A stretch of 64,000 bases of DNA, taken from positions 1 to 64,000 of the IMG/VR virus record IMGVR_UViG_3300013101_000005; one strand, given 5' to 3'. Under the pieces are notes generated by a model. The model worked only from the letters and a program-made list of their open reading frames with translations, was not told the DNA's origin and did not search any database. Positions 7,343 to 26,620 of this stretch are shown one piece after another; position 1 is the first letter of the stretch; each line of letters starts with the position of its first letter. The position numbers were made by a program, and so were the translations under genes. The DNA is from a virus.

Positions 7343-9871
7343 TTACTTCTCACATTCCTCTAATATTGCGGCTGTCGTTCCTGCCCAGTAAGCTATAACT
7401 GACAGATTGATGGTTTCCCCCATATGTTTAGTCAAGTAGTTGTTGTAGTCTTCTAAGATGAGTTGTAATTCTGTAACTGGTACTTCCTGTGCAGGCCATC
7501 CTCCACCACGAGCTATCGTATCTGCGTCTGCTATGCCCGTAGATCCCTTGGTTATCAAATACGGCATCGGCATAGTTCCGTTTACCCACACACACCAGAC
7601 GTAGGTGGTGTCCCTAGACCCGTCGTAGAACTTGGCGAAGGCCATTGGTGGGTTGTCTGTGCTTATTGTTACAGATTTGGGGACAATTTTGCCGAAATCC
7701 AGATTCCGTGATGGAGATTGGAGGTCCCTTCCTTTCGTCGTGAACTGGGCCGACCCGATGCCGATAGATGCGAGTGCCTCGCCTGTCGTTCCTGATGAGT
7801 CATGGGTTGCAAACCACTGGATGATCGGTGGATCAACTCTACTGTTGTCAAGCCATCCGGCAACTTCCATTATGGCCTCAACTAACTGGGATCGGCTGGC
7901 CGGGTATATATTTGAGAAATGGAAATCCTCAAGCATAACGCCGTCGTAATATCCGGCGGTGGCCTTAATGCGGCCAGCACTTCCGTTGACAACATTTAGG
8001 AAGTCGCTTCTCCCGGCAGCACGACGGCAGGCATCAGGCCACTCTCGTACAAACTTCAGATATAGTTCCCTCTCATCTGGGTCTTTGTCGTATGGAATTC
8101 CGTCCTCATCCATGTCGAGGGTGCCGAGATCCCCATCCACAGACCACGCCGGGTAGTCGTCGCCATTCAGATAGTCAGTTAAGAACCCGACATGGCTCTT
8201 TAGCCCATCTCGAACTTTTATGCGGTCTATGTAGAATGCCGCAAGGGTATCGGCTATTCCGGGTGCGGCTAGATTATACATCCAGATCGGCCTGTCGCCA
8301 TGGATTCCCATGGTATGATTTCCGTCAGTATCATACAACCAGAAATCGAGAACCCCGTCGTCGCCCTGATACCCGTCGCTGTTGTTTTCTCCGATGTTCC
8401 ATAGCTGCGTATACATAGTCCCGGCAGTTTCCCACTCCTCAAATACGCCATAGACAAACACGTAATTCAGAAAGATGAGATTCGGATTTCTTACCCGGAG
8501 GGAGTCCACTATCCCGTCCATGCCTGTGCGACTAGCGAGCATATAATAGTGCCCAGTAGTGTATACGTCTGTGAAGTTCCCGACTGAATCGTAGCCAGCT
8601 TCGGTCCATATCGGCGTATCATCGTTTACCCACGTTCCGTAGATCGGCATATCGAATTTCCACAGTGATGGGGGGATTACTTCCTGTGCAGGCCATCCTC
8701 CACCACGGCTCAGAGTATCTGCTCCGTCATAAGAGGTAATGAGGTAGGGCCAGATATAGTCTGTTGCTACTGCACGTACAACATATCTTTTTTGCCCATC
8801 ATCAAAGAAAGCAGATACGGTATCTCCTGACCATACAGGTTCGGAGGCTATCTTACCTAACGATAGTTTTCTATCAAGGTTTCTGAACTGGAAATTACAC
8901 ACTCCATTAGCTATACTTGCTAGTGCTTCTGAGGGGAACCCAATACTGTCATTCTCTCCACCTTGGAACATTAACAGCGGGGGGTTTACTCTTGATTTAT
9001 CAAAGCCATCAGTAGCTATTACAGCCTTTGCCCAATGGTTGGGCTTAGGGTAGTACAGATTCACTAATTCATACATTCCGCCATCCCACAAGTGAGCATA
9101 CTCTGCGTTATTTGCATAGTGTACATTACCATTAGGCATTAACAGGAAGGTAGGCTCGCTACTGAAAGCATTTCTAAATGCTTTGGCTATCTGGTAAGGG
9201 TATGCGGCATTTTGTTCCGCATCACCCGGATCTTCACTCGCAGGGATTCCATTTCTATTAAAATCAAGATCTCCTCTAGGAGTAGGGAATGGCCATTGGG
9301 GATAAGGCACAGTCATCCAATCCAAGAACATTCCTGAATGAGGTCGTACATGCCCCATATTATACATCCATTTAGCGTGTATTTTAGCAACTCCTTCAGC
9401 CAGCCCCGGTGCTCCACAGTTAAGGAACTGTACGGGGATTGTCGGGTCATTTGTTGCTGGTCCTACAACAATATCTCCATGATAATCTCTTAGCCACCAA
9501 TCGTTATCGTTAACCATATTGTAGAATTCAGTATAGAAACCGCCAGCATGTTCCCATCCCGGTCTTAATCCGTATACGAACGCATAAAACAGAGGGATGA
9601 AATCTGGGTTTCTTGTTCTTACTGAGTCAATAAGGCCAATGTGCTTATCATTAAGATATAATTCGTGACCAAAAATCATCATATCGAATTCTGCAATGTC
9701 ATCATAATCTTCTGAGGTATATCCATCTCCAAACTTATACCATATATTATCTCCATATATAGGTAGGTCTAATTGCAGAGGCTTTGTATCTGCATTCATA
9801 ACAACTCCAGCCATCAATCCAATAGCTACAATTGTACTGGCCACTATTGCAGGCCATTTCATTTTCTTCAT
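7343..9871 (-). CDS. Exported protein with two tandem putative glycoside-hydrolase TIM-barrel domains (GH114/GH168/GHL15-like)
   Basis: N-terminal signal; each half has DS(L/V)R.RNP..I.L.Y.FVYG, G.F..D, DxDxxG-type Ca loop, NG, DG...E, and ends RGGGWPAQEV. Confidence 0.65.
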   Translation of the reverse strand: MKKMKWPAIVASTIVAIGLMAGVVMNADTKPLQLDLPIYGDNIWYKFGDGYTSEDYDDIAEFDMMIFGHELYLNDKHIGLIDSVRTRNPDFIPLFYAFVYGLRPGWEHAGGFYTEFYNMVNDNDWWLRDYHGDIVVGPATNDPTIPVQFLNCGAPGLAEGVAKIHAKWMYNMGHVRPHSGMFLDWMTVPYPQWPFPTPRGDLDFNRNGIPASEDPGDAEQNAAYPYQIAKAFRNAFSSEPTFLLMPNGNVHYANNAEYAHLWDGGMYELVNLYYPKPNHWAKAVIATDGFDKSRVNPPLLMFQGGENDSIGFPSEALASIANGVCNFQFRNLDRKLSLGKIASEPVWSGDTVSAFFDDGQKRYVVRAVATDYIWPYLITSYDGADTLSRGGGWPAQEVIPPSLWKFDMPIYGTWVNDDTPIWTEAGYDSVGNFTDVYTTGHYYMLASRTGMDGIVDSLRVRNPNLIFLNYVFVYGVFEEWETAGTMYTQLWNIGENNSDGYQGDDGVLDFWLYDTDGNHTMGIHGDRPIWMYNLAAPGIADTLAAFYIDRIKVRDGLKSHVGFLTDYLNGDDYPAWSVDGDLGTLDMDEDGIPYDKDPDERELYLKFVREWPDACRRAAGRSDFLNVVNGSAGRIKATAGYYDGVMLEDFHFSNIYPASRSQLVEAIMEVAGWLDNSRVDPPIIQWFATHDSSGTTGEALASIGIGSAQFTTKGRDLQSPSRNLDFGKIVPKSVTISTDNPPMAFAKFYDGSRDTTYVWCVWVNGTMPMPYLITKGSTGIADADTIARGGGWPAQEVPVTELQLILEDYNNYLTKHMGETINLSVIAYWAGTTAAILEECEK
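7481..8707. repeat. Exact 30-bp direct repeat (7481-7510, 8678-8707) flanking domain 2 of the GH-like gene
   Basis: tacttcctgtgcaggccatcctccaccacg twice, 1197 bp apart (399 codons). Confidence 0.95.
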
Positions 9872-10200: not shown

Positions 10201-10572
10201 TCATAAAGTATCCATTCTTGCTGGTGTGTATGGTGCGGAGAAGATAGAGAATGGTCCCTGAATGTCTTCATCATCTACTCCAGCTACTCTAAATCTGTAT
10301 GTTCTTCCTAGTGTCATATCAATAAACGTCCAGTTGTATTCTTTCAGTTTGTATTGTGGTTCTGTTAAACCATTAGTTTCTAGTTGTCCTACGTAATATG
10401 CAATATCTGTACCAACAGTTGGTTCGGACCATGTGTATCTAATTTTGATAATTTGGTCAAATGTATCTATGTGAACTGGGTCTTCTGTATAAGGCAGTTC
10501 TACAACATCAAAACATCCCAACAACCCTCCCATAAAGAAAGCCATCAGGACCAACTTGTGGGCTTTGATCAT
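10201..10572 (-). CDS. Lipoprotein with FN3-like domain
   Basis: Lipobox LLGC; YTWSEP..G....YY ... YRFRVAGVD....QGPFS. Confidence 0.75.
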   Translation of the reverse strand: MIKAHKLVLMAFFMGGLLGCFDVVELPYTEDPVHIDTFDQIIKIRYTWSEPTVGTDIAYYVGQLETNGLTEPQYKLKEYNWTFIDMTLGRTYRFRVAGVDDEDIQGPFSIFSAPYTPARMDTL

Positions 10573-10590
10573 CTAGGCTCCTTGATTTAA

Positions 10591-10980
10591 TTATTCTTCT
10601 TCTTTATCATCTAACTTTTTAAGTTTTTCCTCAAGGTCCCTATATTCTTTTTCGTCTTCCCTATAACCTTCCTTAGCCTCTGGAGTCATAAAATGTAGGA
10701 GTTCTGATAGGGAATCGGGGATTCTATTATAGTGGACAATGAATTTCTCTGTCCATCTATCCTCAGTAGTCCACATTCTTTCTTCTAGAAACAGCATTCT
10801 ACGTTTGATTTCTACTCTTTCAATTTCTTTTTTATTTGTCTGTATATCAGCAGACATGGTAGCTATGGCTTTATCTACAGTTTCAGCTTTAGCATAATAA
10901 CCGAATCCATTAGTCATAACCCCCCACACAGCCGCAACAGCTAGAATAAACCCAAGTATAGGCGTGGCCTTTTTAATCAT
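10591..10980 (-). CDS. Membrane-anchored coiled-coil protein
   Basis: N-terminal hydrophobic helix followed by charged heptads. Confidence 0.6.
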   Translation of the reverse strand: MIKKATPILGFILAVAAVWGVMTNGFGYYAKAETVDKAIATMSADIQTNKKEIERVEIKRRMLFLEERMWTTEDRWTEKFIVHYNRIPDSLSELLHFMTPEAKEGYREDEKEYRDLEEKLKKLDDKEEE

Positions 10981-10988
10981 AATAGTTC

Positions 10989-11940
10989 CTAATCTTCAAC
11001 TACAATAATGGTAACTTTCTTAAGTTCCGCTAAACACGGATCTTCAGATCCATCATAAGTGGGGACAACATTCCCACATCTATTTTCCTCTTCTATAAAG
11101 TCTGGGAATCCTTGACATGAAGTACACCAGTAGTTAGGTTGGATGTCCAAAATCTTATTTTTATTAACCAATTTAATAGCTTTATTTAACATAATCAATC
11201 CTCTTTCACAAAGAAAAAAAGTAACAACACAATTCCTACAAATAGGGTTCCAAATATAATTTCAGGAATCAATATGGAAGTTCCTCCCCTTCTTTTTTAT
11301 TTTCAGGTTTTTCTTTCATAATAACTTCTTCAACTAAGGCAAGGTTTATCATTCTAATAGTACCATTCTTTAGGGTAACTTTTGCCCAAGGCACTCTAGC
11401 CATTTGGCCATAGACTGTTTCTACAACAATAGATTCAGCATGGTATTCACTATCTTCTTCCCCTGCTATAATATAACCCAAGGAACACTCATTCCACCAC
11501 ACAGCCTCTAATTCAGTTCCATGTTCAAACATTTCAGTAAACATCTTAATCTACCTTTACTTCTAAGAAATCTTCATCAAAGATTTCATACTCAGGTAAT
11601 ACTGATCCTTCTTCTATTGCTTTAGGTTGAACCATGTAAGTAATTTGCCCATTCCCCCACTGTGTCCTTCCTACAATAATTCCGGTAAATTCCGTATAAG
11701 TTTCAAATACTTCATCCCCATTAAGGAATTTAAACATTAGGTATACCTCTTTCCTCCAGTTAATTCATTTATTTCCTTTTTCAGTCGTTCCACTTCTTCT
11801 GCTTGTTTATGTGCAAAATTCTGTGTGTATTCTAGATCTTTTTCTAAGCTGGCTATAATTTTCAGATATTTTATTTCTGACATAGTTACTTCTTTGGCAA
11901 TCATTTTCAATACTTCATCGTACATATATATCTTAGTCAT
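10989..11940 (-). other. Four small hypothetical ORFs
   Basis: 10989-11198, 11269-11544, 11546-11737, 11737-11940, closely spaced on the - strand. Confidence 0.65.
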
Positions 11941-11946
11941 ACTATA

Positions 11947-12528
11947 TTAACCCCATTGGTATGCCATAGCATCAGCTATGCCTGTGTACGTAGCACTTCT
12001 TTTTTTCCATCTATCTTTTGATGGTCCTAGTTTATTTTGTCTACTTGGAGTTTGGTTTTCCCAGTACCCGCATTTAGGCATTTCTAATATGTTGGTGGCT
12101 TTAAGTATTGGTAGGTTCTTAAGCCACAGGCACGTGCTTTTTGATTCTGGGTGTCCAAATTGCCAAGGTTGTATAATTTGATCCGATTTCCTGATTGCAG
12201 TTCCTATACGTCCTATAGGATTTTCAATCACTATCTTATTTATGGGTGCATCCATCAGGGCTTGTACAAATTGTACAGCTTCTGTGGTTTTTTCTTCTCT
12301 ACCGGGTATTCTTTTGTTCCAGTGTAATCCAGAACTTGATAAATATGTGCAAGGGGGGTGAGCGATCATCATGTCCCATTCTTCCTCCAAATGGTCAAAC
12401 ACATCACCAACAATATGTGGGCCATCCGACTCGCCGGGGAGAAGGTCACAAGATACAGCGTCATGCCCCCTTGCAATGAAAGCATCTCTAACAATTCCAG
12501 TATGTTCACATGCTATTAAAATTCTCAT
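11947..12528 (-). CDS. Short phage-type DNA cytosine methyltransferase-like protein
   Basis: ILIACEHTG, SCDL, AHPPCT (catalytic PC), IENP, QPWQFG, AMAYQWG. Confidence 0.8.
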   Translation of the reverse strand: MRILIACEHTGIVRDAFIARGHDAVSCDLLPGESDGPHIVGDVFDHLEEEWDMMIAHPPCTYLSSSGLHWNKRIPGREEKTTEAVQFVQALMDAPINKIVIENPIGRIGTAIRKSDQIIQPWQFGHPESKSTCLWLKNLPILKATNILEMPKCGYWENQTPSRQNKLGPSKDRWKKRSATYTGIADAMAYQWG

Positions 12529-14853
12529 TATACTTCTATGTCCTGAACATCATTTAAGAAGTCAAGGTCAACACCTTCATTTTCTAAGATTCTATACATA
12601 CCTTTTTGAAGTTCTATAGTGGTTTTATCTTTTTCATATTTTATATCATCTCTCACAAATGACATAATTTCCCAAAGGGCGTGAAACATGTTTTCAGATG
12701 CTTGAATCAAGGTTAGTTTTCTCTTATCACCTTCAGAGTCCATGTGGTAGATAACTTGCATTTTAAAACCTTTTCATTTTTTAAATTTTTCACGGCGAGC
12801 CGAGATACATCTTTATCAAGATGAAGAAGTATGAGCCGCTAGTTTTGGGGGCCAGCCTGTGCAACCAGCCCCCAAATCTATCTACACTAGTCTCTAGTCA
12901 GACGTTCAATACAATCAGGACAATTCACTGTCTCAAAAGTTGAACCAGTTTGGATGTCCTCATTAGCATTAATCCCACAAGGGATCTCACGGACACTGGT
13001 TAGTACCATCTGGCCATCTTCATAATAGCCATCAACCGTCTTTAAGTAATGCACTGTCTCAGGAATCTTGACGTTCTCCATTATTCTACCTCTTTAGTTT
13101 TGAGCCTTTGTAGCTCTTCCTCATGATAGGCAATCTTGCCTAGCCTTTCGGCCTCATCAATCTCTTCCTGCAAATCCCGTACCAAACTGCTAAGTTGTTT
13201 GTATACCTCTATCGCCCTTGTAGGTGTAAGAGCCCATAGACCATTTATGTGTAGAGATCCATCAGTCGCAGGGTCACCATTTCTGTCTAGAGCGTCTGCT
13301 TTTAAGATGAAGGATTTCAGTATTTTATTATTTAGTTCCATATTACTTCCTGCACATTAGATATTTCATCATTAATTTTGATCTTTCCTTCTCTGGTAGA
13401 TCATCTAAGTATTTTAGTAACATATCTTCAAATTTGTCATTAATCTTTTTTCGTGTTGATGCATTTAAAGTTATTCCGTTTAGGTAATCTTTTGCTAATT
13501 TTATAATATGTTTTTCAAAACGAGTATCTATAATGTTTGGAAGTTTCTCTTCAATTAAAGTATCTAGGTATTTTTTTATTTCAGCATACCCAATATTATT
13601 TGTTGCTATTCTACGCTCGTTATTACGCCAAGTCTTATGTATCTGTAACATTTGGTGTGCTAATGATTTAAAATACTTAGAAGCCTGTTCCTCAGTAATA
13701 AGATCCTTAAATATTTTTCTTTGACTTGATGTGAGTGTCTCCAACTTTTTCTTTCCAGACATTATCCATCTCCTTGATAGTTTCCACAACATTAAAAACC
13801 ATATGGACTATAGGATCATCAGGTCTTCCTTCTTTGTCCATAGCTATTTTAATATCACCCAACACATTAAATAACATATACCTCTGTTCAAGCAATAAAC
13901 CAATCTGCTGAACCTGTAAAGAATCCGCTATGATCAGTTCATTATTCCTGTCCTGCAAATTACGTACCACATTACCATATAAACTTTTTAAGTTCTCTAG
14001 ATTCTCAAGTCTTTCTTTAGTTGATTCTTCTGGTAAAGAACTATAAAGTTCCAATAAACTAGCTAATGTCTCCATCCTTGCCTCCCTTGATCGTTAATAA
14101 GACTACCTGCTCTTTTCCTTTACTATTACACACAGGGCATAATAGAGTTTCTATTATAGGCATTTTTGTCACTAAACCTATACAACAAATAGGGCAGTAC
14201 ACTCTTTGATATTCATCTTCTAAAGGAGTGAATATAAGTTGTGTCATTACTTTTCTTTTTCCTTTTTTCTCTTCTTTTCTCTTCTAGGTGGATCTATGAT
14301 CTCACTTATCATATCTCTAGCCTTTAAACTATCTTGTTCGTCTTCAAGAAGTTCTTTTACTTTTATTGCTTCCACTACATCATAGAAGGTGGATCTCCCT
14401 GCTAAAGGGAGCCATATAGTGTGCCCATCTTCTAGATATTGTATAGTAAGGGTTAAGTTACTATTTCTAACTACTCTGTATTGTATATACATTATTTCAC
14501 GCTCGTTTTATTGTTTTAGTTTTCTTTGCTTTCTTTGCTTTCTTTGTAATAGTTTTCTTTATAGTGCGTGTGATTGGCATGTCTGCTTCAAGGCTAAACA
14601 TTATTTTAAACATCTTCTTGTTTTTAGCATAAAGCCAACCGTTCTCGTCTACTATTACCCAAAACCCTTTTTTAATCTTGGCACCATTAACGAATAGTTC
14701 AACTTCATTATTGAAACAATTTAATCTCATGGTCCCTTCATCCCAATTTTTCTTGTAAGATCTTCCATGTTCCTGAAACATGCCCATGATCTCAAAATGG
14801 TTGTCTCCATCAAACTGTAACGCCTTACATAACCCGTTTCTACTGAAATTCAT
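12528..14853 (-). other. Run of small hypothetical ORFs
   Basis: 12528-12761, 12887-13081, 13081-13341, 13343-13762, 13707-14075, 14059-14247, 14247-14492, 14497-14853. Confidence 0.65.
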
Positions 14854-14855
14854 TA

Positions 14856-15503
14856 CTAAACTCCTCTGGTAAAGAATGCCGTAAGTATATTAGGCAATCC
14901 TTGGTTTCCTGTTCCACGAATAGTGTCCTCTATGTTATCATACTCAAGCATAACGTATCCCATACGTTTCATAAATTTAATCAGTCCTCTTCTTGTAAAG
15001 TGGTGGTAGTGTTCTTCTGGCCTTAAATGTTTCCACGTAGTAAACCACTCAAAAGAAGCGTCCTTTGGATAATGGGACCACGGCACAGAGATACAAATAT
15101 ACTTACAATCAAGTTCCCTAACAAATTCAAGATCTTCAAAATGTTCTAAAGAATCAAAGAATGTTATTAGGTCATAATGTTTTCCAAGTAGGTCCTCTGC
15201 CTTTGCAACACCAAAGGGCAATGGGTATCCACTTATGTCATACCCATACGGCTTCATCCCTTGTCTACGGCATGTTTCTAAAAAATCCCCATTACCGTAC
15301 CCAACATCAAGAACAGTTTTATAGTGTATGTCCATAAAATTTCTAATAAAGTGCAACCGTAGTAATGACATTGCTGTTGTCTGCCATCCGTAAGAATCAT
15401 AACGTTCTTTTACATATGTTTCATCATATACAAAAGGTTTTGGATTCACAAGATGTATAACCTCATCCTCACTTATTACATATTTATGCCCATTAACCTC
15501 CAT
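14856..15503 (-). CDS. Class I SAM-dependent methyltransferase (Methyltransf_23-like)
   Basis: VLDVGYGNG, YGYDIS, YDLITFFDSLEHF, ISVP, EHYHHF. Confidence 0.85.
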   Translation of the reverse strand: MEVNGHKYVISEDEVIHLVNPKPFVYDETYVKERYDSYGWQTTAMSLLRLHFIRNFMDIHYKTVLDVGYGNGDFLETCRRQGMKPYGYDISGYPLPFGVAKAEDLLGKHYDLITFFDSLEHFEDLEFVRELDCKYICISVPWSHYPKDASFEWFTTWKHLRPEEHYHHFTRRGLIKFMKRMGYVMLEYDNIEDTIRGTGNQGLPNILTAFFTRGV

Positions 15504-15736
15504 ACTACTCTCCTACAAAAGCGCAGACTTGCACTTTAATTTCATCTGGGTTATCTGTGTTTAAGAGTATATAATCAAAATTGCAACAGGTTGCTTTTAA
15601 ATTATTGCTTGTCATATATTGCACTTCTTCTATTTCTTTAAAGTCTAGTGTGGCACCACACATCATACACTCACCGTTTTTCATTACTTCTTTTGTTGTG
15701 TAAATTTTACTATTAATCAATCGCATTTTGTTCTCC

Positions 15737-16168
15737 TTAGAGAGACATTAATTTCTTCTTCATTAACTTCTTTAGTTCTTTATCTGTTAGTTCCTCTAAA
15801 ATAGTGTCTTTCATGTTTGCTATACGTTTCTTTGTTTTTTCTGGAAAGTATAGAGTATCATCAAAGATATAATCAAGGGTCTGAGTAACCCTATCCCGCA
15901 TCATATTTTTAATTTCTTTATCCTTAAGAAAATCTGTACTTGTAAAAACTTCTTTAAGTTTAGTAAGAACAATACCATCAAGTTCCTCTACAATAGCTTC
16001 ATCTTCATATATACTCTCTATTGCACCATCAACCATATCATTTATCATATGCTGTTTTAAGGGGAATTTAAATTTACCTATGGAGATATACAGATCATCT
16101 GGTTCTTTCTTTGCTTTCTTTCTTGCAATAACCTTTTTACATATCTTTTTGCTTACTTTTCTAGACAT
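15737..16168 (-). CDS. Hypothetical helical protein
   Basis: 143-aa ORF coupled to neighbours. Confidence 0.6.
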   Translation of the reverse strand: MSRKVSKKICKKVIARKKAKKEPDDLYISIGKFKFPLKQHMINDMVDGAIESIYEDEAIVEELDGIVLTKLKEVFTSTDFLKDKEIKNMMRDRVTQTLDYIFDDTLYFPEKTKKRIANMKDTILEELTDKELKKLMKKKLMSL

Positions 16169-17048
16169 TTTGTTCCTCCACGCCTAAGTACTCATTGTAC
16201 TGGTTACAGAAATAACTAACAGCGCAAAAATCTTCGCACCTAGTTCTTTTCCCCTTACGCTCCACTATCTTAAATTTATCCTTTGGGTGCTTGTCCCTGT
16301 AGTAAGCAAGAAGTATACCTGCTTCATGTTCATCGTCTGTTACTTTGGTCGCTCTTTTATTTTTTGCTTTCATAATTGCATATGTAGTTGGCTTCTCCCA
16401 TGTCTCTTCAGGAGTGCAGTATGGTAGTTTGTTGTCTGGTAAATTCTCAGAATTCTTATGTAATGCAATTCTTTTGAAAGCAAACTCTTCACATTGTAAA
16501 TCTGTCCACATAGCAATGTCTATTACCTGTGCTGGCCTTCTAGGGTAGTCCTTTGATTGCATCATCTTATATTTTGTCCAATCTCTGATGATTGCAACAA
16601 TACTTAATTTGTTTACAGGGAATCCAGCTAGTCTATATAAAAATGCTAACAGATTCAACTGTGCCTCCCATTCTGGTTTGCTATCTACCATAGTAGACCA
16701 AGCCCCCGTTACTTTGTAATCCATCAACTCACCGGGAGCCTGCCAAATATCTGCTTGACCTGACCATTCCCATTCATTTGTAGTTGTCTCTAACCTAATT
16801 TCCTGTAGATCATCTGAATGTTTGTCTTCTGCTCTCTCTAGAATTGCATGTACTGCACTTCCTAATAGAAGCCAAATCCTGTCCGTAACATCTTCTTCCA
16901 ATTCATCCCAATGTCGTTGAGTTAACCAACGCAACCTTGGAGGACTGATCATCTGTGTTACAGAGATCTTTCCTGTATAGGTGTAGGGATCCTGCTCTAT
17001 TGCTCTAACAAGAGCATTAGGCATACCAAAATTATTAGTTATTTTCAT
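16161..17048 (-). CDS. PD-(D/E)XK exonuclease (Cas4/RecB-like)
   Basis: GSAVHAILE, E.RL, SGQAD, DYKVT, QLN; C-terminal C..FC.V..FC cluster. Confidence 0.85.
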   Translation of the reverse strand: MKITNNFGMPNALVRAIEQDPYTYTGKISVTQMISPPRLRWLTQRHWDELEEDVTDRIWLLLGSAVHAILERAEDKHSDDLQEIRLETTTNEWEWSGQADIWQAPGELMDYKVTGAWSTMVDSKPEWEAQLNLLAFLYRLAGFPVNKLSIVAIIRDWTKYKMMQSKDYPRRPAQVIDIAMWTDLQCEEFAFKRIALHKNSENLPDNKLPYCTPEETWEKPTTYAIMKAKNKRATKVTDDEHEAGILLAYYRDKHPKDKFKIVERKGKRTRCEDFCAVSYFCNQYNEYLGVEEQNV

Positions 17049-17409
17049 TTGGATCTTCCCAGATTTCGTACATAGTTTGTATGTACTGTGAAATGAAACT
17101 TAATAAAGGAATTCCTGCCTTTTCTGCATGTGTCCTAAGATACTTCTTCTCTTTATCAGATAGTTGGTAATCAGACCAATCACTAGGTTCGGAAACTCCA
17201 CCAGCATCGTCTATTGCCTCCACAGACAAGAGCAAGGTACCCTCATATATAGTAACATACCTATTTTCTATAACAGTGGCTGATTCTACAATTTGTCCAA
17301 ACCTATCTGTCAGTTTAACAACATAACCTGTAGGTGGATTGCCTACTTCCGGTGGACTCCACATAAAGACCATAATAAGTAGGAATCCGGATAGTATAGT
17401 ATTCTTCAT
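17035..17409 (-). CDS. FN3-like protein with hydrophobic N-terminus and helical C-terminal tail
   Basis: WSPPEVG.PPTGY ... LSVEAIDDAGGVSEPS. Confidence 0.55.
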   Translation of the reverse strand: MKNTILSGFLLIMVFMWSPPEVGNPPTGYVVKLTDRFGQIVESATVIENRYVTIYEGTLLLSVEAIDDAGGVSEPSDWSDYQLSDKEKKYLRTHAEKAGIPLLSFISQYIQTMYEIWEDPNENN

Positions 17410-17814
17410 TCTACCCTCTTACTCTATATATTCTATTCTTGTTTTGGTCATTTTTCCTATTAGAAATAACACATCTTTTATGGTTTTAGCCTTTTGTGAC
17501 CAAATAGTTCCATCAAGATCAGTAGATAACGAAACATCAAAATCACTATTCATTTCATCATACTGAACTTGAATCATCTTCTTATACAGCTTCATTATGT
17601 TGTCTCCCACATTTTTTTAAAGCCCTTTGGAAATCCTGTTTTCTTTTCTTTTTTAGCTAGATCTGTTCCAATATCTACATATATAAACCCATCTGTATTG
17701 TTTGTACTAGTTACTGTGTAACTTACATCCCACTGGGCATTCCAACCACTTGCAGGCATAGGTATTCTATTAATTGGTACATTAGGAACAGAAGGCATTA
17801 TATTCTCCCTGTGC

Positions 17815-18005
17815 TTAAATGTGTTTCCACACCTTTCTATTAACTATATAACTTATATGTCCTCTGCTGACATGCATAAGTTGTGCCAATTCCTCCTGTA
17901 TATATTCTTTATTTAAATAAGCCTTTCTAATAAATAAAACATCGTCTTCGGTTAACTTAGCACATTTAAACGGTTTTTTATATTTTTATATTTTTTACAC
18001 TTCAT
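17815..18005 (-). pseudogene. HTH DNA-binding gene (HNH C-terminal-type) with a 1-nt frameshift
   Basis: ATG 18005 overlaps the upstream TGA; the frame encoding AKLTEDDVLFIR...ELAQLMHVSRGHISYIVNRKVWKH is reached only if the A5 in A6-TAT-A5-TAT-A6 were A6. Confidence 0.6.
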
Positions 18006-18174
18006 ATTAATTCTCTTGTTCCTGTATAAGTACACTCAGAGTTAAGACACTTTATACCTAATAAAACAGCCGTACCCTCTAGTACCCACATATTTTGTAC
18101 AGTAGTATAGGTTCCACAAACAGGACAGCATTGATTAGAAAATAATTCTGATGCTAATATAAATTTTGATTCCT

Positions 18175-18405
18175 TTATTTTTTCCTTCGGTTTTCCCATG
18201 CTACACTTGCTTTCTTTTTTACGGCAGATTCTGTTTTAGCCTCTACCATACCTGTTCTTGGATTAACTAAACACTTTTTGTTCTCACATCCTACATAACA
18301 ACAAAAGCCCAGATAACCTTTCATGGTCATAGCTCTGGGCTTTGCTTTACAAAAGGGACAAGGTGTTGCTCCTTTTAAGATGCTTTTGTCTTTATTAGTT
18401 TTCAT
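18175..18405 (-). CDS. Lar (restriction alleviation)-like Zn-finger protein
   Basis: PCPFC....V.C....C.......A...W..R pattern. Confidence 0.6.
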   Translation of the reverse strand: MKTNKDKSILKGATPCPFCKAKPRAMTMKGYLGFCCYVGCENKKCLVNPRTGMVEAKTESAVKKKASVAWENRRKK

Positions 18406-18407
18406 CC

Positions 18408-19448
18408 CTACCTTACTCTGTATGGCTTACCCGGTTTACTTGGAGGATCTACATCTGGGAATGGAGGAGCATAAGGTTCCGATTCTGGAGAAAAAGGTCC
18501 TTGTCTGCTTTCTGCATCCCTTCCTGCAACTCTGATCCATTGTGTAACTCCTGCAATTCCTGTATATGTAATTGAAGTTGTTTCTGTAACAGCATATGCT
18601 ACCCAATTAGGATTCCTTGCTGTTTTTACTTCTGCTATATATTGTACCACAGGTGTTCCTGTTGTTGGTGCTGTCCAAGTATATCTAGTATCTACAGGTA
18701 TATCTTCTGGTGGATCTACTGGCCCTAGAGGAAGATGTCCAAAATTGAAATTTTGAGCTACTTCAGCTTCAGTTAATTCTCTATCAAAAAGACCAAAGAA
18801 GTAAAAAGTACCTAACCAAGGTCTATCATTTGATTGTTCATTAGCTAGAGCAAAATAGTAATCTCCCCAGTTGTTAATAATACCTGCGTTAGAAGCAGAT
18901 GCAACTTTTGTGCCATTAACAAAAAGGGTAGTTACATTTAATGTGCTTCGTGTAATTACAATATGTATTAGTCCGGAACCGGCACTACTCGTCACTCCCG
19001 GCATACCATATACATCTGTAACAGAGGTTCTTATTCTAACTTCTAATTCTGATACTGCTTGTCCAACAACAAAGTTACCACCACCCGGATAACCATTTAA
19101 AGAGTAAGCCGCTATTCTAGCTGGGCCACTTTGTGTATAATTTCCTGGTTCTACCCATAATTCAACAGAGAACTCGCCAGTTGATTCTATTGTAGATATC
19201 CACCATGGACGTATTGAGGATGCAATTTTAGTAGGGGAATTTATAGTTAATCCCCCACCAAGCACCCAAGATACATTTGTTGGATCAGCAATTGTCAAAT
19301 GTATTGGAACAGGGGAAACAGCAACATCCTGAACTATGTTCCCTGTCCCCTCTGAAAACCAATACATAGACAAGATACCATCATCGACTCTTTCCTGAGC
19401 AAGTAATGGTGATGCAAGTAATAATAAAAATACTAATAACTGTTTCAT
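18408..19448 (-). CDS. Exported LamG/concanavalin-like + FN3-like protein with C-terminal PPSKPGKPYRV tail
   Basis: Signal peptide (LLA-QE); YWFSEG.G..V.D, FSVELWV, HIVIT, LFVNG, FDREL...EV; then FN3-like W..P..G...Y ... RVAGRD...QGPFS. Confidence 0.85.
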   Translation of the reverse strand: MKQLLVFLLLLASPLLAQERVDDGILSMYWFSEGTGNIVQDVAVSPVPIHLTIADPTNVSWVLGGGLTINSPTKIASSIRPWWISTIESTGEFSVELWVEPGNYTQSGPARIAAYSLNGYPGGGNFVVGQAVSELEVRIRTSVTDVYGMPGVTSSAGSGLIHIVITRSTLNVTTLFVNGTKVASASNAGIINNWGDYYFALANEQSNDRPWLGTFYFFGLFDRELTEAEVAQNFNFGHLPLGPVDPPEDIPVDTRYTWTAPTTGTPVVQYIAEVKTARNPNWVAYAVTETTSITYTGIAGVTQWIRVAGRDAESRQGPFSPESEPYAPPFPDVDPPSKPGKPYRVR

Positions 19449-19792
19449 TATTGTACTCTATAGGGCTTTCCTGGCTTGCTTGGAGGACCAAAATCTATAA
19501 TTTCAATATCTGAAATATCAGAGAATTCCCCCTGATTGTTAAAAATATCTACTCCAGCAACTTGTATCTGATAGGGTACAAGAGCATCTGCTGTAAATTC
19601 AAAATAAACAGTGTCTACTACGGTTGTAGAGAAAAGAACAGTGTCTTTATATAACTCTACTGTGTATGTCACCGCAACTGCACCAGAGTCCGGTACGTCC
19701 CATGAGAAAGCCATTGTCCCACTTGTTTGTGCCACAGCAGTTCCTGTGAATAAAACCAGTACAACCAATCCTAATAATAGTCTTTTAATCAT
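19448..19792 (-). CDS. Exported single FN3-like protein with C-terminal PPSKPGKPYRV tail
   Basis: Signal peptide (AVA-Q); FSWDVP..G...Y.V ... YQIQVAGVD...QGEFS. Confidence 0.8.
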   Translation of the reverse strand: MIKRLLLGLVVLVLFTGTAVAQTSGTMAFSWDVPDSGAVAVTYTVELYKDTVLFSTTVVDTVYFEFTADALVPYQIQVAGVDIFNNQGEFSDISDIEIIDFGPPSKPGKPYRVQ

Positions 19793-19827
19793 TTTAATCT
19801 CCTATTCTGTATTATTTAACAACTAGT

Positions 19828-19842
19828 CTATATATATAACAC
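19828..19842 (-). promoter_or_regulatory. Putative phage-specific promoter motif (copy B), upstream of the FN3 genes
   Basis: GTGTTATATATATAG. Confidence 0.55.
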
Positions 19843-19892
19843 CTTATTTTACTTTTTGGAACAAGGCTTGATTTATGAAGTCTTTTCTATTT

Positions 19893-24334: not shown

Positions 24335-24757
24335 TTACCAATAACCACCAATTCCAATTGAAGTTCCAACAAGGTCATCATATGCAATTGATAAAACTAA
24401 TCCATTAATGTCCTGCTCTTTAAGAGGGAATGCCCATAGAAATTCAAATCCGACATCCCCCTCCAAATATTTATCCTTTGTAACAAACGCTGAATAGATA
24501 CCAACAAAAGCACCTTTGTATAATCTCTTGTTTATACCGAATCCAAAGTAAGTCATAATTATGTTTTCATCATTTGGTCGGAATGTCCCAAGTGTACCAG
24601 AGAGCCCAACTTCGTTCTCTGTACCTAGTTCTTGTAAGGTAACCCCAACGTATTCTCTGTCATCAAAATTGACTGAAATAGAGGTCTTGGTTTCTCCATA
24701 AACACTCACTGACCAAGCTAACATCATAATAACTAAACCAAGTAATAGTTTCTTCAT
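24335..24757 (-). CDS. Small outer-membrane beta-barrel-like protein
   Basis: Signal peptide, about eight amphipathic strands, C-terminal aromatic residue (GIGGYW). Confidence 0.6.
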   Translation of the reverse strand: MKKLLLGLVIMMLAWSVSVYGETKTSISVNFDDREYVGVTLQELGTENEVGLSGTLGTFRPNDENIIMTYFGFGINKRLYKGAFVGIYSAFVTKDKYLEGDVGFEFLWAFPLKEQDINGLVLSIAYDDLVGTSIGIGGYW

Positions 24758-24766
24758 TGTATTCTC

Positions 24767-25585
24767 CTATACAGCGTTTGTAAGAAGCGTCTTTCTTTTA
24801 TCTTTAGGAAGTTCTGTAAATCTACCACGATTGGGATGGCTACAATCATTACATCTCCAACGTCTATACATTCCAACTTGTGTATATTCAAATCCCTTTT
24901 TGATTAAGTTCTTAGAACCACAAGCTGTGCAACAGGGGTCACTATCACTGACGTATAAACCAAAATTAGGATGCCGTTTATCCCAAGGACGTATTTGTAA
25001 ATAAACTTCCTCTAATAAATGTACATCTTGTATATTATAATCCATCATAGTTTTCCATGCTTTAGTATCACCATTCATACACCCTATCCATAGATCAAAA
25101 TCTGTCTTATTCTTTTTACCAAGACCTAAGTATTGTCCTATATAGTCCAACTTATTTGATGTAAGACGAAATTCTCTACGTGCTGTTGTTAGGGTATCTA
25201 TAATTTTGTAAGGATCGGGTGGAGGGAAATTATGATACAAAAATCTTGCATTAACCATTGGTACATCAAATCGTGTTCCATTGTGTGCAACAACCATATC
25301 TGCTTCATTAAGTAAATCCCATAGAGGTTCTAAAAGTTTTAGATCATTTTTCTTATCTTTCTTATACATACTTTTAAAATCTGGTAACTTAAAGTTTATA
25401 ATCTTATCTTCATGTAACCATTTAGCCGCCCAACACAAAATAAATAGATCCTCTTTAATCATATCTATTGGGATATACTTTTGTCTTAGACTCCATATGT
25501 GGGTTAATACGGGGGTTGTCTCAATATCAAATACTAATATCTTAGGCCCGTCATATTTTTGTTTTGCTTTTTTACGTTTAGCCAT
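24767..25585 (-). CDS. DEDD/RNase H-like 3'-5' exonuclease with C-terminal Zn ribbon
   Basis: FDIET, AHNG..FD, IDTL, SNKLD, YNIQDV; C..CGS...C..C. Confidence 0.85.
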   Translation of the reverse strand: MAKRKKAKQKYDGPKILVFDIETTPVLTHIWSLRQKYIPIDMIKEDLFILCWAAKWLHEDKIINFKLPDFKSMYKKDKKNDLKLLEPLWDLLNEADMVVAHNGTRFDVPMVNARFLYHNFPPPDPYKIIDTLTTARREFRLTSNKLDYIGQYLGLGKKNKTDFDLWIGCMNGDTKAWKTMMDYNIQDVHLLEEVYLQIRPWDKRHPNFGLYVSDSDPCCTACGSKNLIKKGFEYTQVGMYRRWRCNDCSHPNRGRFTELPKDKRKTLLTNAV

Positions 25586-26054
25586 TAGTTGCCTTTCTTT
25601 GCCTATATTGTAGAATAAACTTTCTAGTCTCATTCATATCAATCAAAGTGCCGGGACATGTTTTGTTTCTTTTCAGTTTTTCCCAAGGTGTGTCCCTGTG
25701 CCCTATTACATTTTTTAATGGTATATTATATGCATTCATTAAATCAGATACTAAAGAAGATAACAATTGTAATTGAATATCTGTCCACTCAATATGATCC
25801 CCATGCCCTGTTACACAAATACCTATACTTTTCCTGTTGAAACCATAAGCATGGGCTCCATGATAATGTAGGGGTCTTCCTAATTCTATACTAGCTGTGT
25901 CATCAAACATTGAACCAGTAATTACATAATGATACCCTATGGTTTCCCATCCATTTTCTAAGTGCCATTGTGTTATAATTTTAGCATTTGCTTTGCCTCT
26001 AAAAGCCGCTGTATGTAATACAATATGTGTTGGAAATTTCTTAAATTCTCTCAA
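25578..26054 (-). CDS. N-acetylmuramoyl-L-alanine amidase (Amidase_2, endolysin)
   Basis: IVLHT, WH..NGW..IGYHY, GAHA.G.N..SIGIC, GHRD, K.CPG. Confidence 0.9.
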   Translation of the reverse strand: MREFKKFPTHIVLHTAAFRGKANAKIITQWHLENGWETIGYHYVITGSMFDDTASIELGRPLHYHGAHAYGFNRKSIGICVTGHGDHIEWTDIQLQLLSSLVSDLMNAYNIPLKNVIGHRDTPWEKLKRNKTCPGTLIDMNETRKFILQYRQRKATNG

Positions 26055-26110: not shown

Positions 26111-26620
26111 TTAAAGTAGATTTGCGGCACGCCTCAACTCGTTCTTAGTTAACCAAAACAAACCAGTATCACTAATGGTACGCTTTGCCATACTACGATC
26201 ATTCTGATTTACAATAGCATCTACAGCATTCTTCCATCCACCTATGCCCGATCTAGTTGCTAATAGAGTAAAATTGGATTTGGTAGCCTTAAAACTACCA
26301 TCAATCATAAAAGTAGTGATTTCCTTCTTAGCATCTCGCTTACTAATCATATTCCTAACGCCTTTGTGCCACTTAACAGTCTTCATATGAGACTCCTTCA
26401 AGTTAAACTATAGTTTTTTAACCTTAGTCATATCATAATTTATGCCTATGACTACTTTTCCTAGAAACTTTAAAGCAAGTTGCGTGCCAATTACAGTTAA
26501 GAGTACTGTAAAAAAGGTAGGTAGGCCAAAAAGACCCATAAATAGCATAACACCTACGGTAGTACATCCCAGCAGGAATGCGGCATACCTAAGGTAATCT
26601 GCTTTAGAAAATGTCTGCAT
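26111..26620 (-). other. Two small ORFs (basic 96 aa; two-TM 70 aa)
   Basis: 26111-26401 and 26408-26620. Confidence 0.6.

Follow-up and report, generated by a model that had tools for sequence, protein, structure and literature searches.

A phage-encoded fibronectin type III protein that lacks strand A and ends in a conserved strand-A-like tail

The window studied here is a stretch of 64,000 nucleotides, the first 64 kb of a 98,631-base IMG/VR phage record (IMGVR_UViG_3300013101_000005) that is about 71% complete. It encodes four paralogous proteins with a fibronectin type III (FN3) domain, the products of genes D, C, A and B (Table 1). D, a small protein, and C, which also harbors a LamG domain, both carry a signal peptide and end in the same conserved tail. 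The FN3 domain of D lacks strand A, and by homology its tail corresponds to the linker and the first strand-A residues of a following FN3 domain. Self-association of D and C through this tail is plausible, and an anchored pilus is not supported.

Four paralogous FN3 genes and their export signals

A family profile was built from 30 small members and used to search the whole 98,631-base record. Exactly four places matched, with E-values of 2.4e-41 (D), 7e-26 (C), 4.2e-16 (A) and 1.5e-6 (B). They are the four paralogous FN3-like open reading frames that an earlier sequence-only reading of the window had picked out, and all lie on the minus strand. In pairwise comparisons, the FN3 domain of C matches A (E=1e-12, 38% identity), and D matches both C (E=1.8e-10) and A (E=1e-3). 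The match between B and C is weak (E=0.12), and B is thus a family member by profile only. The motif W-x2-P-x2-G-x5-Y is invariant in all four proteins and VAG-x-D-x4-QG(P/E)FS is found in D, C and A, in agreement with the same reading. The PF00041 (fn3) scores of D, A and B in Pfam (15.0, 14.5 and 13.1 bits) are all below the gathering cut-off of 25, and no fn3 match is listed in the Pfam scan of C. The LamG domain of C is recognized with confidence (PF13385, residues 90-231, E=5.6e-15, 56.2 bits for a cut-off of 27.6). In PHROGs, D matches the FN3 region of the central tail fibre J (phrog_31) with an E-value of 4.5e-7.

D and C both display a Sec signal peptide with n-, h- and c-regions that finishes with A-x-A, and their mature chains open with a Gln. 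Neither is a lipoprotein precursor, as A-x-A precedes the Gln and there is no Cys. Only A has a lipobox (LLGC), which is retained in P0170, the sole homologue found (64% identity). The N-terminus of B consists of about 12 hydrophobic residues that run directly into the FN3 strand-B motif, and a comparison with its 62% identical orthologue from the syntenic contig L003 reveals no conserved A-x-A or small-residue cleavage site. The signal peptide of B is therefore unconvincing. Judging from its sequence, B is probably not exported, and it is probably cytoplasmic or membrane-associated. Of the hydrophobic N-termini previously attributed to all four proteins, the signal peptides of D and C and the lipobox of A hold, and only B falls short. 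A Gln that follows the signal peptide is the subject of the so-called Q-rule (PMC5837995). We rejected this residue as a marker of the host because it is also retained in family members from Fibrobacterota and Krumholzibacteriota.

The mature D chain starts at strand B

The structure of mature D was predicted with AlphaFold2 from a 57-row alignment. The model has a mean predicted local distance difference test score (pLDDT) of 96.4 and a predicted template modeling score of 0.80, and the full-length precursor a pLDDT of 90.8. The mature model comprises strands B, C, C', E and F and an irregular strand G, with no strand assigned by DSSP ahead of B. The precursor model contains the same strands and the helix of the signal peptide.

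In a fold search with the D model, 242 of 1000 chains reached Z>=8 and, among the matches listed, almost all are FN3 domains or FN3-containing proteins. The top match is titin A168-A170 (2nzi_A, Z 9.8, root-mean-square deviation (rmsd) 2.2 Å over 78 residues), and single-domain matches include 8ot5_D (Z 9.7, rmsd 2.0 Å) and 8oq9_A (Z 9.3). D is thus predicted to adopt the FN3 β-sandwich fold, and the family profile likewise retrieves titin from the Protein Data Bank (PDB) with an E-value of 1.2e-33. Residues 3-82 of the mature D model superpose on residues ~19-104 of solved single FN3 domains, with Z of 9.3-9.8 and rmsd of 2.0-2.4 Å. As the model begins at about residue 19 of the solved domains, the mature chain starts at strand B, and this fold alignment bears out the absence of strand A that had been proposed for D. 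The seven strands A to G are therefore not all present in the single chain of D. They are present in A, as judged on sequence, where PVHIDTF aligns with strand A of titin and of domain 3 of the three-domain relative P0025.

The absence of strand A extends to the whole family. In nearly all of 103 distinct small members, the predicted cleavage site is usually separated from the conserved Trp by 5-12 residues, which is too short for a strand A. C may lack this strand as D does, and a mere tip protein would not require that.

The C-terminal tail is conserved and resembles the start of a following FN3 domain

The tail sequence PPSKPGKPYRV is identical in D and C, and its coding sequences show 6 synonymous and 0 non-synonymous differences. 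The D tail is invariant in three metagenomic homologues with 56-82% identity and is also retained in the D' gene of contig L003, while P-x-x-PGKP-x-RV is invariant in four C homologues with 52-72% identity. Many synonymous differences are observed in the tail coding among four genes compared. Across 30 members with ~30-35% identity, G102, P104, P107, G108 and P110 are conserved like residues of the fold core. As read from these codons and alignments, the tail is under strong purifying selection. The argument that an identical tail with different codons reflects selection on the protein is thus strengthened by its presence in every close homologue of D and C; a loss of the tail, which would have spoken against the proposed polymer, was not seen in any of the relatives found.

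Among 68 members, the number of residues that follow the G-x-P triplets ranges from 3 to 9, with a mode of 4. Their pattern is β-like, with I, V or Y at position +1 and V, I or L at position +3, and the last residue is a Phe in 21 of the 68. In P0025, the same P-G-K-P leads straight into strand A of the next domain. When the PDB was searched with the profile, the columns of the tail were aligned with those inter-FN3 linkers of titin that precede strand A, and the titin linker P-P-G-P-P-x-x-P-x-V leading into this strand is matched by the tail of D and C. From the P0025 and titin alignments, the tail is by homology an inter-domain linker joined to the beginning of strand A in the next FN3 domain, a resemblance that the sequence-only reading had already noted.

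In the monomer model of D, the tail is not a DSSP strand and has a pLDDT of 89-93, so that it neither fills the slot as a strand in cis nor appears disordered, the two outcomes named beforehand as contrary to a donor role. Its alignment with the linker and the following domain in solved tandem pairs is loose, the rmsd going from ~2.2 Å over 78 residues to 3.8-5.3 Å over 89-91 residues when it is included.

Three other functions of the tail were considered and set aside. Attachment to peptidoglycan via a C-terminal Lys, as in Braun's lipoprotein, does not fit a last residue and a Lys that vary across the family, and this variation of the Lys also applies to an isopeptide lock via the tail Lys. 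Three G-x-P triplets are too few for a collagen-like triple helix.

Table 1. Positions of the FN3 genes, their parts and the gene paired with A (all on the minus strand).
Feature	Position (strand)	Description	Basis
Gene D, 114 aa	19448..19792 (-)	Sec signal peptide (predicted cut after AVA, mature from Gln22), FN3 from strand B, C-terminal tail	Open reading frame, family profile, AlphaFold, fold match, homologues with 56-82% identity
Tail of D, residues 103-114	19451..19486 (-)	PPSKPGKPYRVQ; three G/S-x-P triplets and a 4-residue β-like end	
Gene C, 346 aa	18408..19448 (-)	Signal peptide, LamG/concanavalin-like domain, proline-rich link, FN3, same tail as D	Open reading frame, PF13385, profile, four full-length homologues with 52-72% identity
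LamG (Laminin_G_3) domain of C	18756..19181 (-)		PF13385
Tail of C, residues 335-346	18411..18446 (-)		Conservation, synonymous-only differences from D
Gene A, 123 aa	10201..10572 (-)	Lipoprotein (lipobox LLGC), complete FN3 with own strand A, no tail	Open reading frame, profile, homologue P0170
129-aa protein	10591..10980 (-)	Membrane helix at the N-terminus, charged and helical toward the C-terminus; could be the inner-membrane spanin partner of A, whose gene lies 18 nt downstream	
Gene B, 124 aa	17035..17409 (-)	Divergent FN3-like core from strand B after 12 hydrophobic residues, ~40-residue helical C-terminal extension	

Distribution and diversity of the family

The profile search recovered 692 proteins at E<=1e-3 and, among the best 150 of these, about 80 are proteins of 100-150 aa with a D-like build. 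This build, shared by about a hundred small proteins, consists of a signal peptide, an FN3 domain without strand A, three G-x-P triplets and a β-like tail of 3-6 residues. The module formed by FN3 and tail is observed behind three N-terminal contexts, namely none, LamG and, in P0046, another domain. P0046 and P0018 may be encoded side by side, as each lies on a contig of 6715 bases, and the same may hold for P0019 and P0008 (2530 bases each). The four paralogues, of which D and C have the typical build, belong to a family of small exported FN3 proteins that is widespread but uncurated. No family describing it was found in Pfam, NCBIfam or PHROGs, and searches of NCBIfam, PHROGs and the ESM Atlas with D, C, A, B and the 129-aa protein gave only generic FN3, LamG and the FN3 of tail fibres as named families. 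The profile search of the PDB revealed no solved structure of a close relative, phage GenBank records gave no DNA or protein match, and IMG/VR scans with C and with the D alignment returned no relatives besides the record itself.

The family is found in both phage and bacterial settings. Look-alike clusters from the ESM Atlas are labelled Uroviricota, and bacterial members occur in metagenome-assembled genomes (MAGs) of uncultured Fibrobacteraceae (Fibrobacterota), Krumholzibacteriota and Latescibacterota. In the MAG loci (L008-L041), the family gene is single and lies among genes for an HtrA-like protease, a sulfatase, a succinate dehydrogenase, a major facilitator superfamily transporter and an HD protein. 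In the MAG loci examined, no paralogue that could act as tip or anchor was found near the family gene. The conserved neighbors of this single gene indicate that it is chromosomal and vertically kept there. An unnamed protein of ~200-270 aa, encoded on the other strand just downstream of the family gene, is a kept neighbor in Fibrobacteraceae and Krumholzibacteriota MAGs. The large "cluster 0" neighbors in the bacterial loci were considered as multi-domain paralogues and rejected, being spurious Arg-rich open reading frames of GC-rich DNA. The giant multi-FN3 proteins from the profile search were likewise discarded as a reference for strand-A composition because they are too distant and their linkers differ. 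The LamG relatives of C are secreted bacterial proteins, including a protein sorted by the type IX secretion system from an Ignavibacteriae MAG. Together, the LamG relatives and the family members point, by sequence, to a host in the Fibrobacterota-Chlorobiota-Bacteroidota (FCB) superphylum.

Two subgroups differ at the C-terminus. In 9-11 members, the tail end is replaced by a membrane helix and basic residues, and strand A is absent from these proteins too. The order of triplets, C-terminal membrane helix and Arg/Lys is seen in P0047, P0054, P0061, P0085, P0087, P0105, P0109, P0132, P0134 and P0158, a layout of motif, helix and basic cluster that resembles C-terminal sorting signals. In 16 members, a Cys occupies one fixed place in the tail (G-x-C-G-K-P), and in 14 of the 16 it is the sole Cys of the mature chain. 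The subclade includes P0055, P0065, P0092, P0093, P0111, P0131, P0146, P0148, P0156 and P0165. The single tail Cys suggests an intermolecular disulfide. Being alone, it could join two copies symmetrically through a disulfide or bond to a partner protein, and a head-to-tail ladder is impossible.

Possible assembly through the tail

A conserved tail together with a family-wide loss of strand A is most economically explained if the tail acts in trans on another copy. Once exported, D and C would reside in the infected cell's periplasm or envelope, where the cleaved mature chain would open at strand B and leave the slot beside this strand empty. The tail of one copy could then dock on the slot of another, D on D, D on C or C on D. 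Dimers or short head-to-tail chains would result, in which the LamG lectin-like head of C is coupled to D. A and B, while members of the family, would stay outside this assembly. We hold this proposal as a tentative one, possible and short of probable. The lone-Cys subclade leans toward dimers over chains. Strand-A swapping by FN3 domains is known from a solved structure among the matches listed, that of Tencon (PDB 4m6a), which exchanges its N-terminal strand A with a second copy in a manner like the docking proposed for D. Tencon was engineered with a complete seven-strand sequence, whereas D has no N-terminal strand A and carries the surrogate at its C-terminus.

The D and C genes lie in early or accessory gene surroundings, just downstream of methyl-, sulfo- and glycosyltransferase genes. 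Exported proteins with a lectin-like head, encoded downstream of glycan-modifying enzymes, suggest, from this context, that a glycan on the envelope of the infected cell may be bound. A possible role would be the coating or masking of this glycan, near the glycan-modifying enzymes of the phage.

Several observations weigh against such docking. The D monomer without strand A is predicted with a pLDDT of 96.4, and the fold may thus need no completion. The proline-rich part of the tail is followed by only 3-6 residues (4 in D), far below the length of known donor strands. The helix-ended members show that a domain without strand A can exist without a donating tail. P0025 keeps a similar tail while all its domains are complete, so the tail could be an inherited linker with another role. 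Finally, the bacterial members are single chromosomal genes amid housekeeping genes.

FN3 is among the best-studied folds, and its tandem arrays are, to our knowledge, always covalent. If docking in trans takes place, a register-shifted single FN3 unit would need its neighbor, which would provide a simple, machinery-free route by which chains or dimers could form in the envelope of bacteria. It would also offer a first clue to the function of at least 100 small conserved proteins of phages and poorly known FCB phyla that are named by no database, and would place exported lectin-bearing assemblies on the infected-cell envelope, beside an unusually large set of glycan-modifying enzymes. In a broader proposal, the family would represent a new chaperone-free class of strand-complemented assemblies, in which subunits are joined head to tail as in tandem FN3 arrays but non-covalently, and with which FCB phages and bacteria build periplasmic or surface chains with varied heads such as LamG. 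We regard this extension as distinctly unlikely.

Alternative explanations for the tail

D and C could instead be self-contained monomers, in which the FN3 domain is stable without strand A and the tail packs on its own domain or forms a stiff stalk. They would then be simple modules, exported by the phage to the periplasm or surface and with C acting as a lectin, that bind or mask an envelope component, for instance for superinfection exclusion or to keep progeny off debris. The confident model with its tail placed agrees with this explanation, as do the LamG domain of C, the position of the genes among early or accessory genes beside glycan-modifying enzymes, the tail that follows the complete last domain of P0025, and the members whose triplet motif is continued by a membrane helix, as in a stalk. 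It is harder to reconcile with the sequence of the tail, since a stalk or spacer would not require 11 invariant residues, including the last Y-R-V, at 52-82% identity. The β-like pattern after the triplets and the family-wide loss of strand A would also be left unexplained, and the modeled tail is not a strand and leaves the slot unfilled in cis. We therefore consider monomers possible but somewhat doubtful. If they are monomeric, the finding reduces to a new subfamily of FN3 proteins whose C-terminal motif is conserved and unusual.

The tail might also be a docking peptide for a non-FN3 partner, such as an outer-membrane assembly factor that recognizes C-terminal β-strands, or a periplasmic protease of the HtrA or Prc type, through its PDZ domain. 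Bacterial chains often end in hydrophobic-x-hydrophobic-Phe, consistent with the terminal Phe counted above, and such an end resembles the C-terminal signature that is read by the PDZ domains of DegS and DegP. Of 34 bacterial loci, 11 have a gene for an HtrA-like protease with two PDZ domains at a distance of a few genes, and the conserved single tail Cys could bond to a partner. The phage chains end in a polar Q, R or K, however, which is a poor fit to PDZ domains of this kind. The HtrA gene lies on the other strand, is not adjacent, and its synteny is common to related MAGs and hence not independent evidence. This makes partner docking unlikely for D and C.

The sequence-only reading had proposed a pilus-like filament assembled by C-terminal donor strands, in which C would form the tip and D the shaft, and A and B, both without a tail, would serve as anchors or terminators. 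The missing strand A and the conserved strand-A-like tail of D are compatible with it, as is the arrangement of the two genes: D comes first, overlaps C by one base and has an AGGAG of its own, as would suit a ratio of major to minor subunits. Type V pili of Bacteroidia likewise use strands at the C-terminus, together with tip adhesins and an anchor that is a lipoprotein (PMC8512630). This layout did not withstand the analysis of A and B. With its own strand A and no tail, A offers neither an empty slot nor a donor, whereas the type V anchor needs its C-terminus to enter the fiber (PMC8512630). The C-terminus of A is unlike those of D and C and shows no conservation with P0170 beyond the FN3 core. 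B lacks a convincing signal peptide, and its gene is translationally coupled to that of an exonuclease. A and B are located 8 kb and 1 kb from the D-C pair, in other gene groups. The donor segment would be just 4 residues long, C may be without strand A, a loss that a mere tip would not require, and the bacterial members are single genes. The Cys-tail subclade, with no Cys in the domain, permits a symmetric dimer but not a covalent head-to-tail ladder. PapD-type chaperones (PF00345) and ushers (PF00577) had no match in the 98.6 kb record, which is ~71% complete, nor did FimA/Mfa-type proteins (PF06321), for which a control was detected in Bacteroides thetaiotaomicron. An anchored pilus is thus very improbable.

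The promoter motif that the same reading had assigned to the D-C genes was not confirmed either, as a scan of the spacer 19793-19892 for promoters of the sigma-70 type was empty.

Comparison with known systems

D is most similar to the units of tandem FN3 arrays, such as those of the titin A-band and of bacterial and phage multi-FN3 proteins (e.g. phrog_31), with which it shares strands B to G and the core motifs. Unlike these units, D is single, exported and register-shifted, as it runs from strand B to a linker and the start of a strand A, and it scores below the Pfam fn3 cut-off.

In chaperone-usher pili, the donor strand is N-terminal and about 10-20 residues long. The proposed donor of D and C differs in being C-terminal and limited to 3-6 residues after a proline-rich stretch. 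Chaperone-usher pili also need PapD and an usher, neither of which was found in this record. In these pili and in chaperone-free filaments, an incomplete Ig-like sandwich is completed by the next subunit, as is proposed for D and C. According to the reports on archaeal cannulae (bioRxiv 10.1101/2024.12.30.630787) and on uromodulin ZP filaments (PMC7486124), chaperone-free donor-strand filaments can work without dedicated machinery.

Type V pili, with a FimA/Mfa1 shaft, a FimB/Mfa2 lipoprotein anchor and tip adhesins (PMC8512630), rest on the same idea of an N-terminal groove and a C-terminal donor, combined with a lipoprotein and an adhesin-like head. Their hosts and those of D and C are probably in the same superphylum. 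D and C differ from type V pilins, all of which are produced as lipoprotein precursors (signal peptidase II), in that they use signal peptidase I and are not lipoprotein precursors, and in that their fold is FN3 and not FimA. The type V groove is opened by a protease specific for Arg/Lys, whereas the slot of D would be open from the cleavage of the signal peptide. Lastly, the type V anchor has a C-terminal donor (PMC8512630) and lipoprotein A is without one.

Genes A and B in their genomic context

Lipoprotein A and the 129-aa protein encoded just upstream of it could form a two-component spanin, as outer- and inner-membrane subunits respectively, that would act in the last lysis step and be functionally unrelated to D and C. 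This assignment is independent of the explanations weighed above, and we view it as doubtful. A gene for an N-terminal membrane helix and a charged helical periplasmic part, followed 18 nt downstream by a lipobox gene, is the layout used to recognize separated spanin pairs and resembles that of two-component spanins of the lambda Rz/Rz1 type, in which a gene for a membrane helix and coiled coil likewise precedes or embeds a lipobox gene. The 129-aa protein has weak Rz-like matches in PHROGs (phrog_739, E=0.005; phrog_1403, E=0.071), which are limited to the membrane-helix region (residues ~5-59). A has no PHROG match, and neither NCBIfam nor the ESM Atlas gave anything named for the pair. Outer-membrane spanins are short and proline-rich, and the folded 100-residue FN3 domain of A is atypical of them. 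A thus differs from Rz1 in being a folded FN3 paralogue of D and C, and the pair does not adjoin a holin or an amidase.

The likely lysis genes of the phage are found elsewhere on the minus strand. They encode a 158-aa Amidase_2 protein (25578-26054, PF01510, E=2.7e-19) and a holin-like neighbor of 70 aa with two hydrophobic helices (26408-26620). No spanin is adjacent to this cassette, which leaves room for a pair located elsewhere, but the A pair is 15 kb from the amidase and thus outside the location expected of a lysis gene. Spanin genes are separated from the lysis cassette in some large phages.

Gene B overlaps by 14 nt a gene for an exonuclease (phrog_2139, E=3e-46). Its orthologue occupies the same position in contig L003, where the gene order D-C ... 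B-exonuclease is conserved.

Other neighboring genes

The start of gene C overlaps the stop of gene D by one base. Just downstream of C, two small Cys-rich, zinc-finger-like proteins are encoded at 18175-18405 (-) and 18002-18199 (-), and both are kept in L003. The first of them has a weak Lar-like restriction-alleviation match (phrog_599, E=0.004).

A 140-aa protein encoded at 24335-24757 (-) has a signal peptide and a β-rich chain, rich in Gly and aromatic residues, that ends in G-G-Y-W. It is reminiscent of a small outer-membrane β-barrel and is without a Pfam-type family in NCBIfam. Lastly, an 842-aa membrane-anchored two-domain protein is encoded at 7343-9871 (-) and gave no match in Pfam, PHROG or NCBIfam. 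A short D-x-D-x-D-G-I-P-like segment in each half is also present in a single-domain protein of 431 aa from L003 (7168-8463 (+); E=2e-7 and 2e-4).

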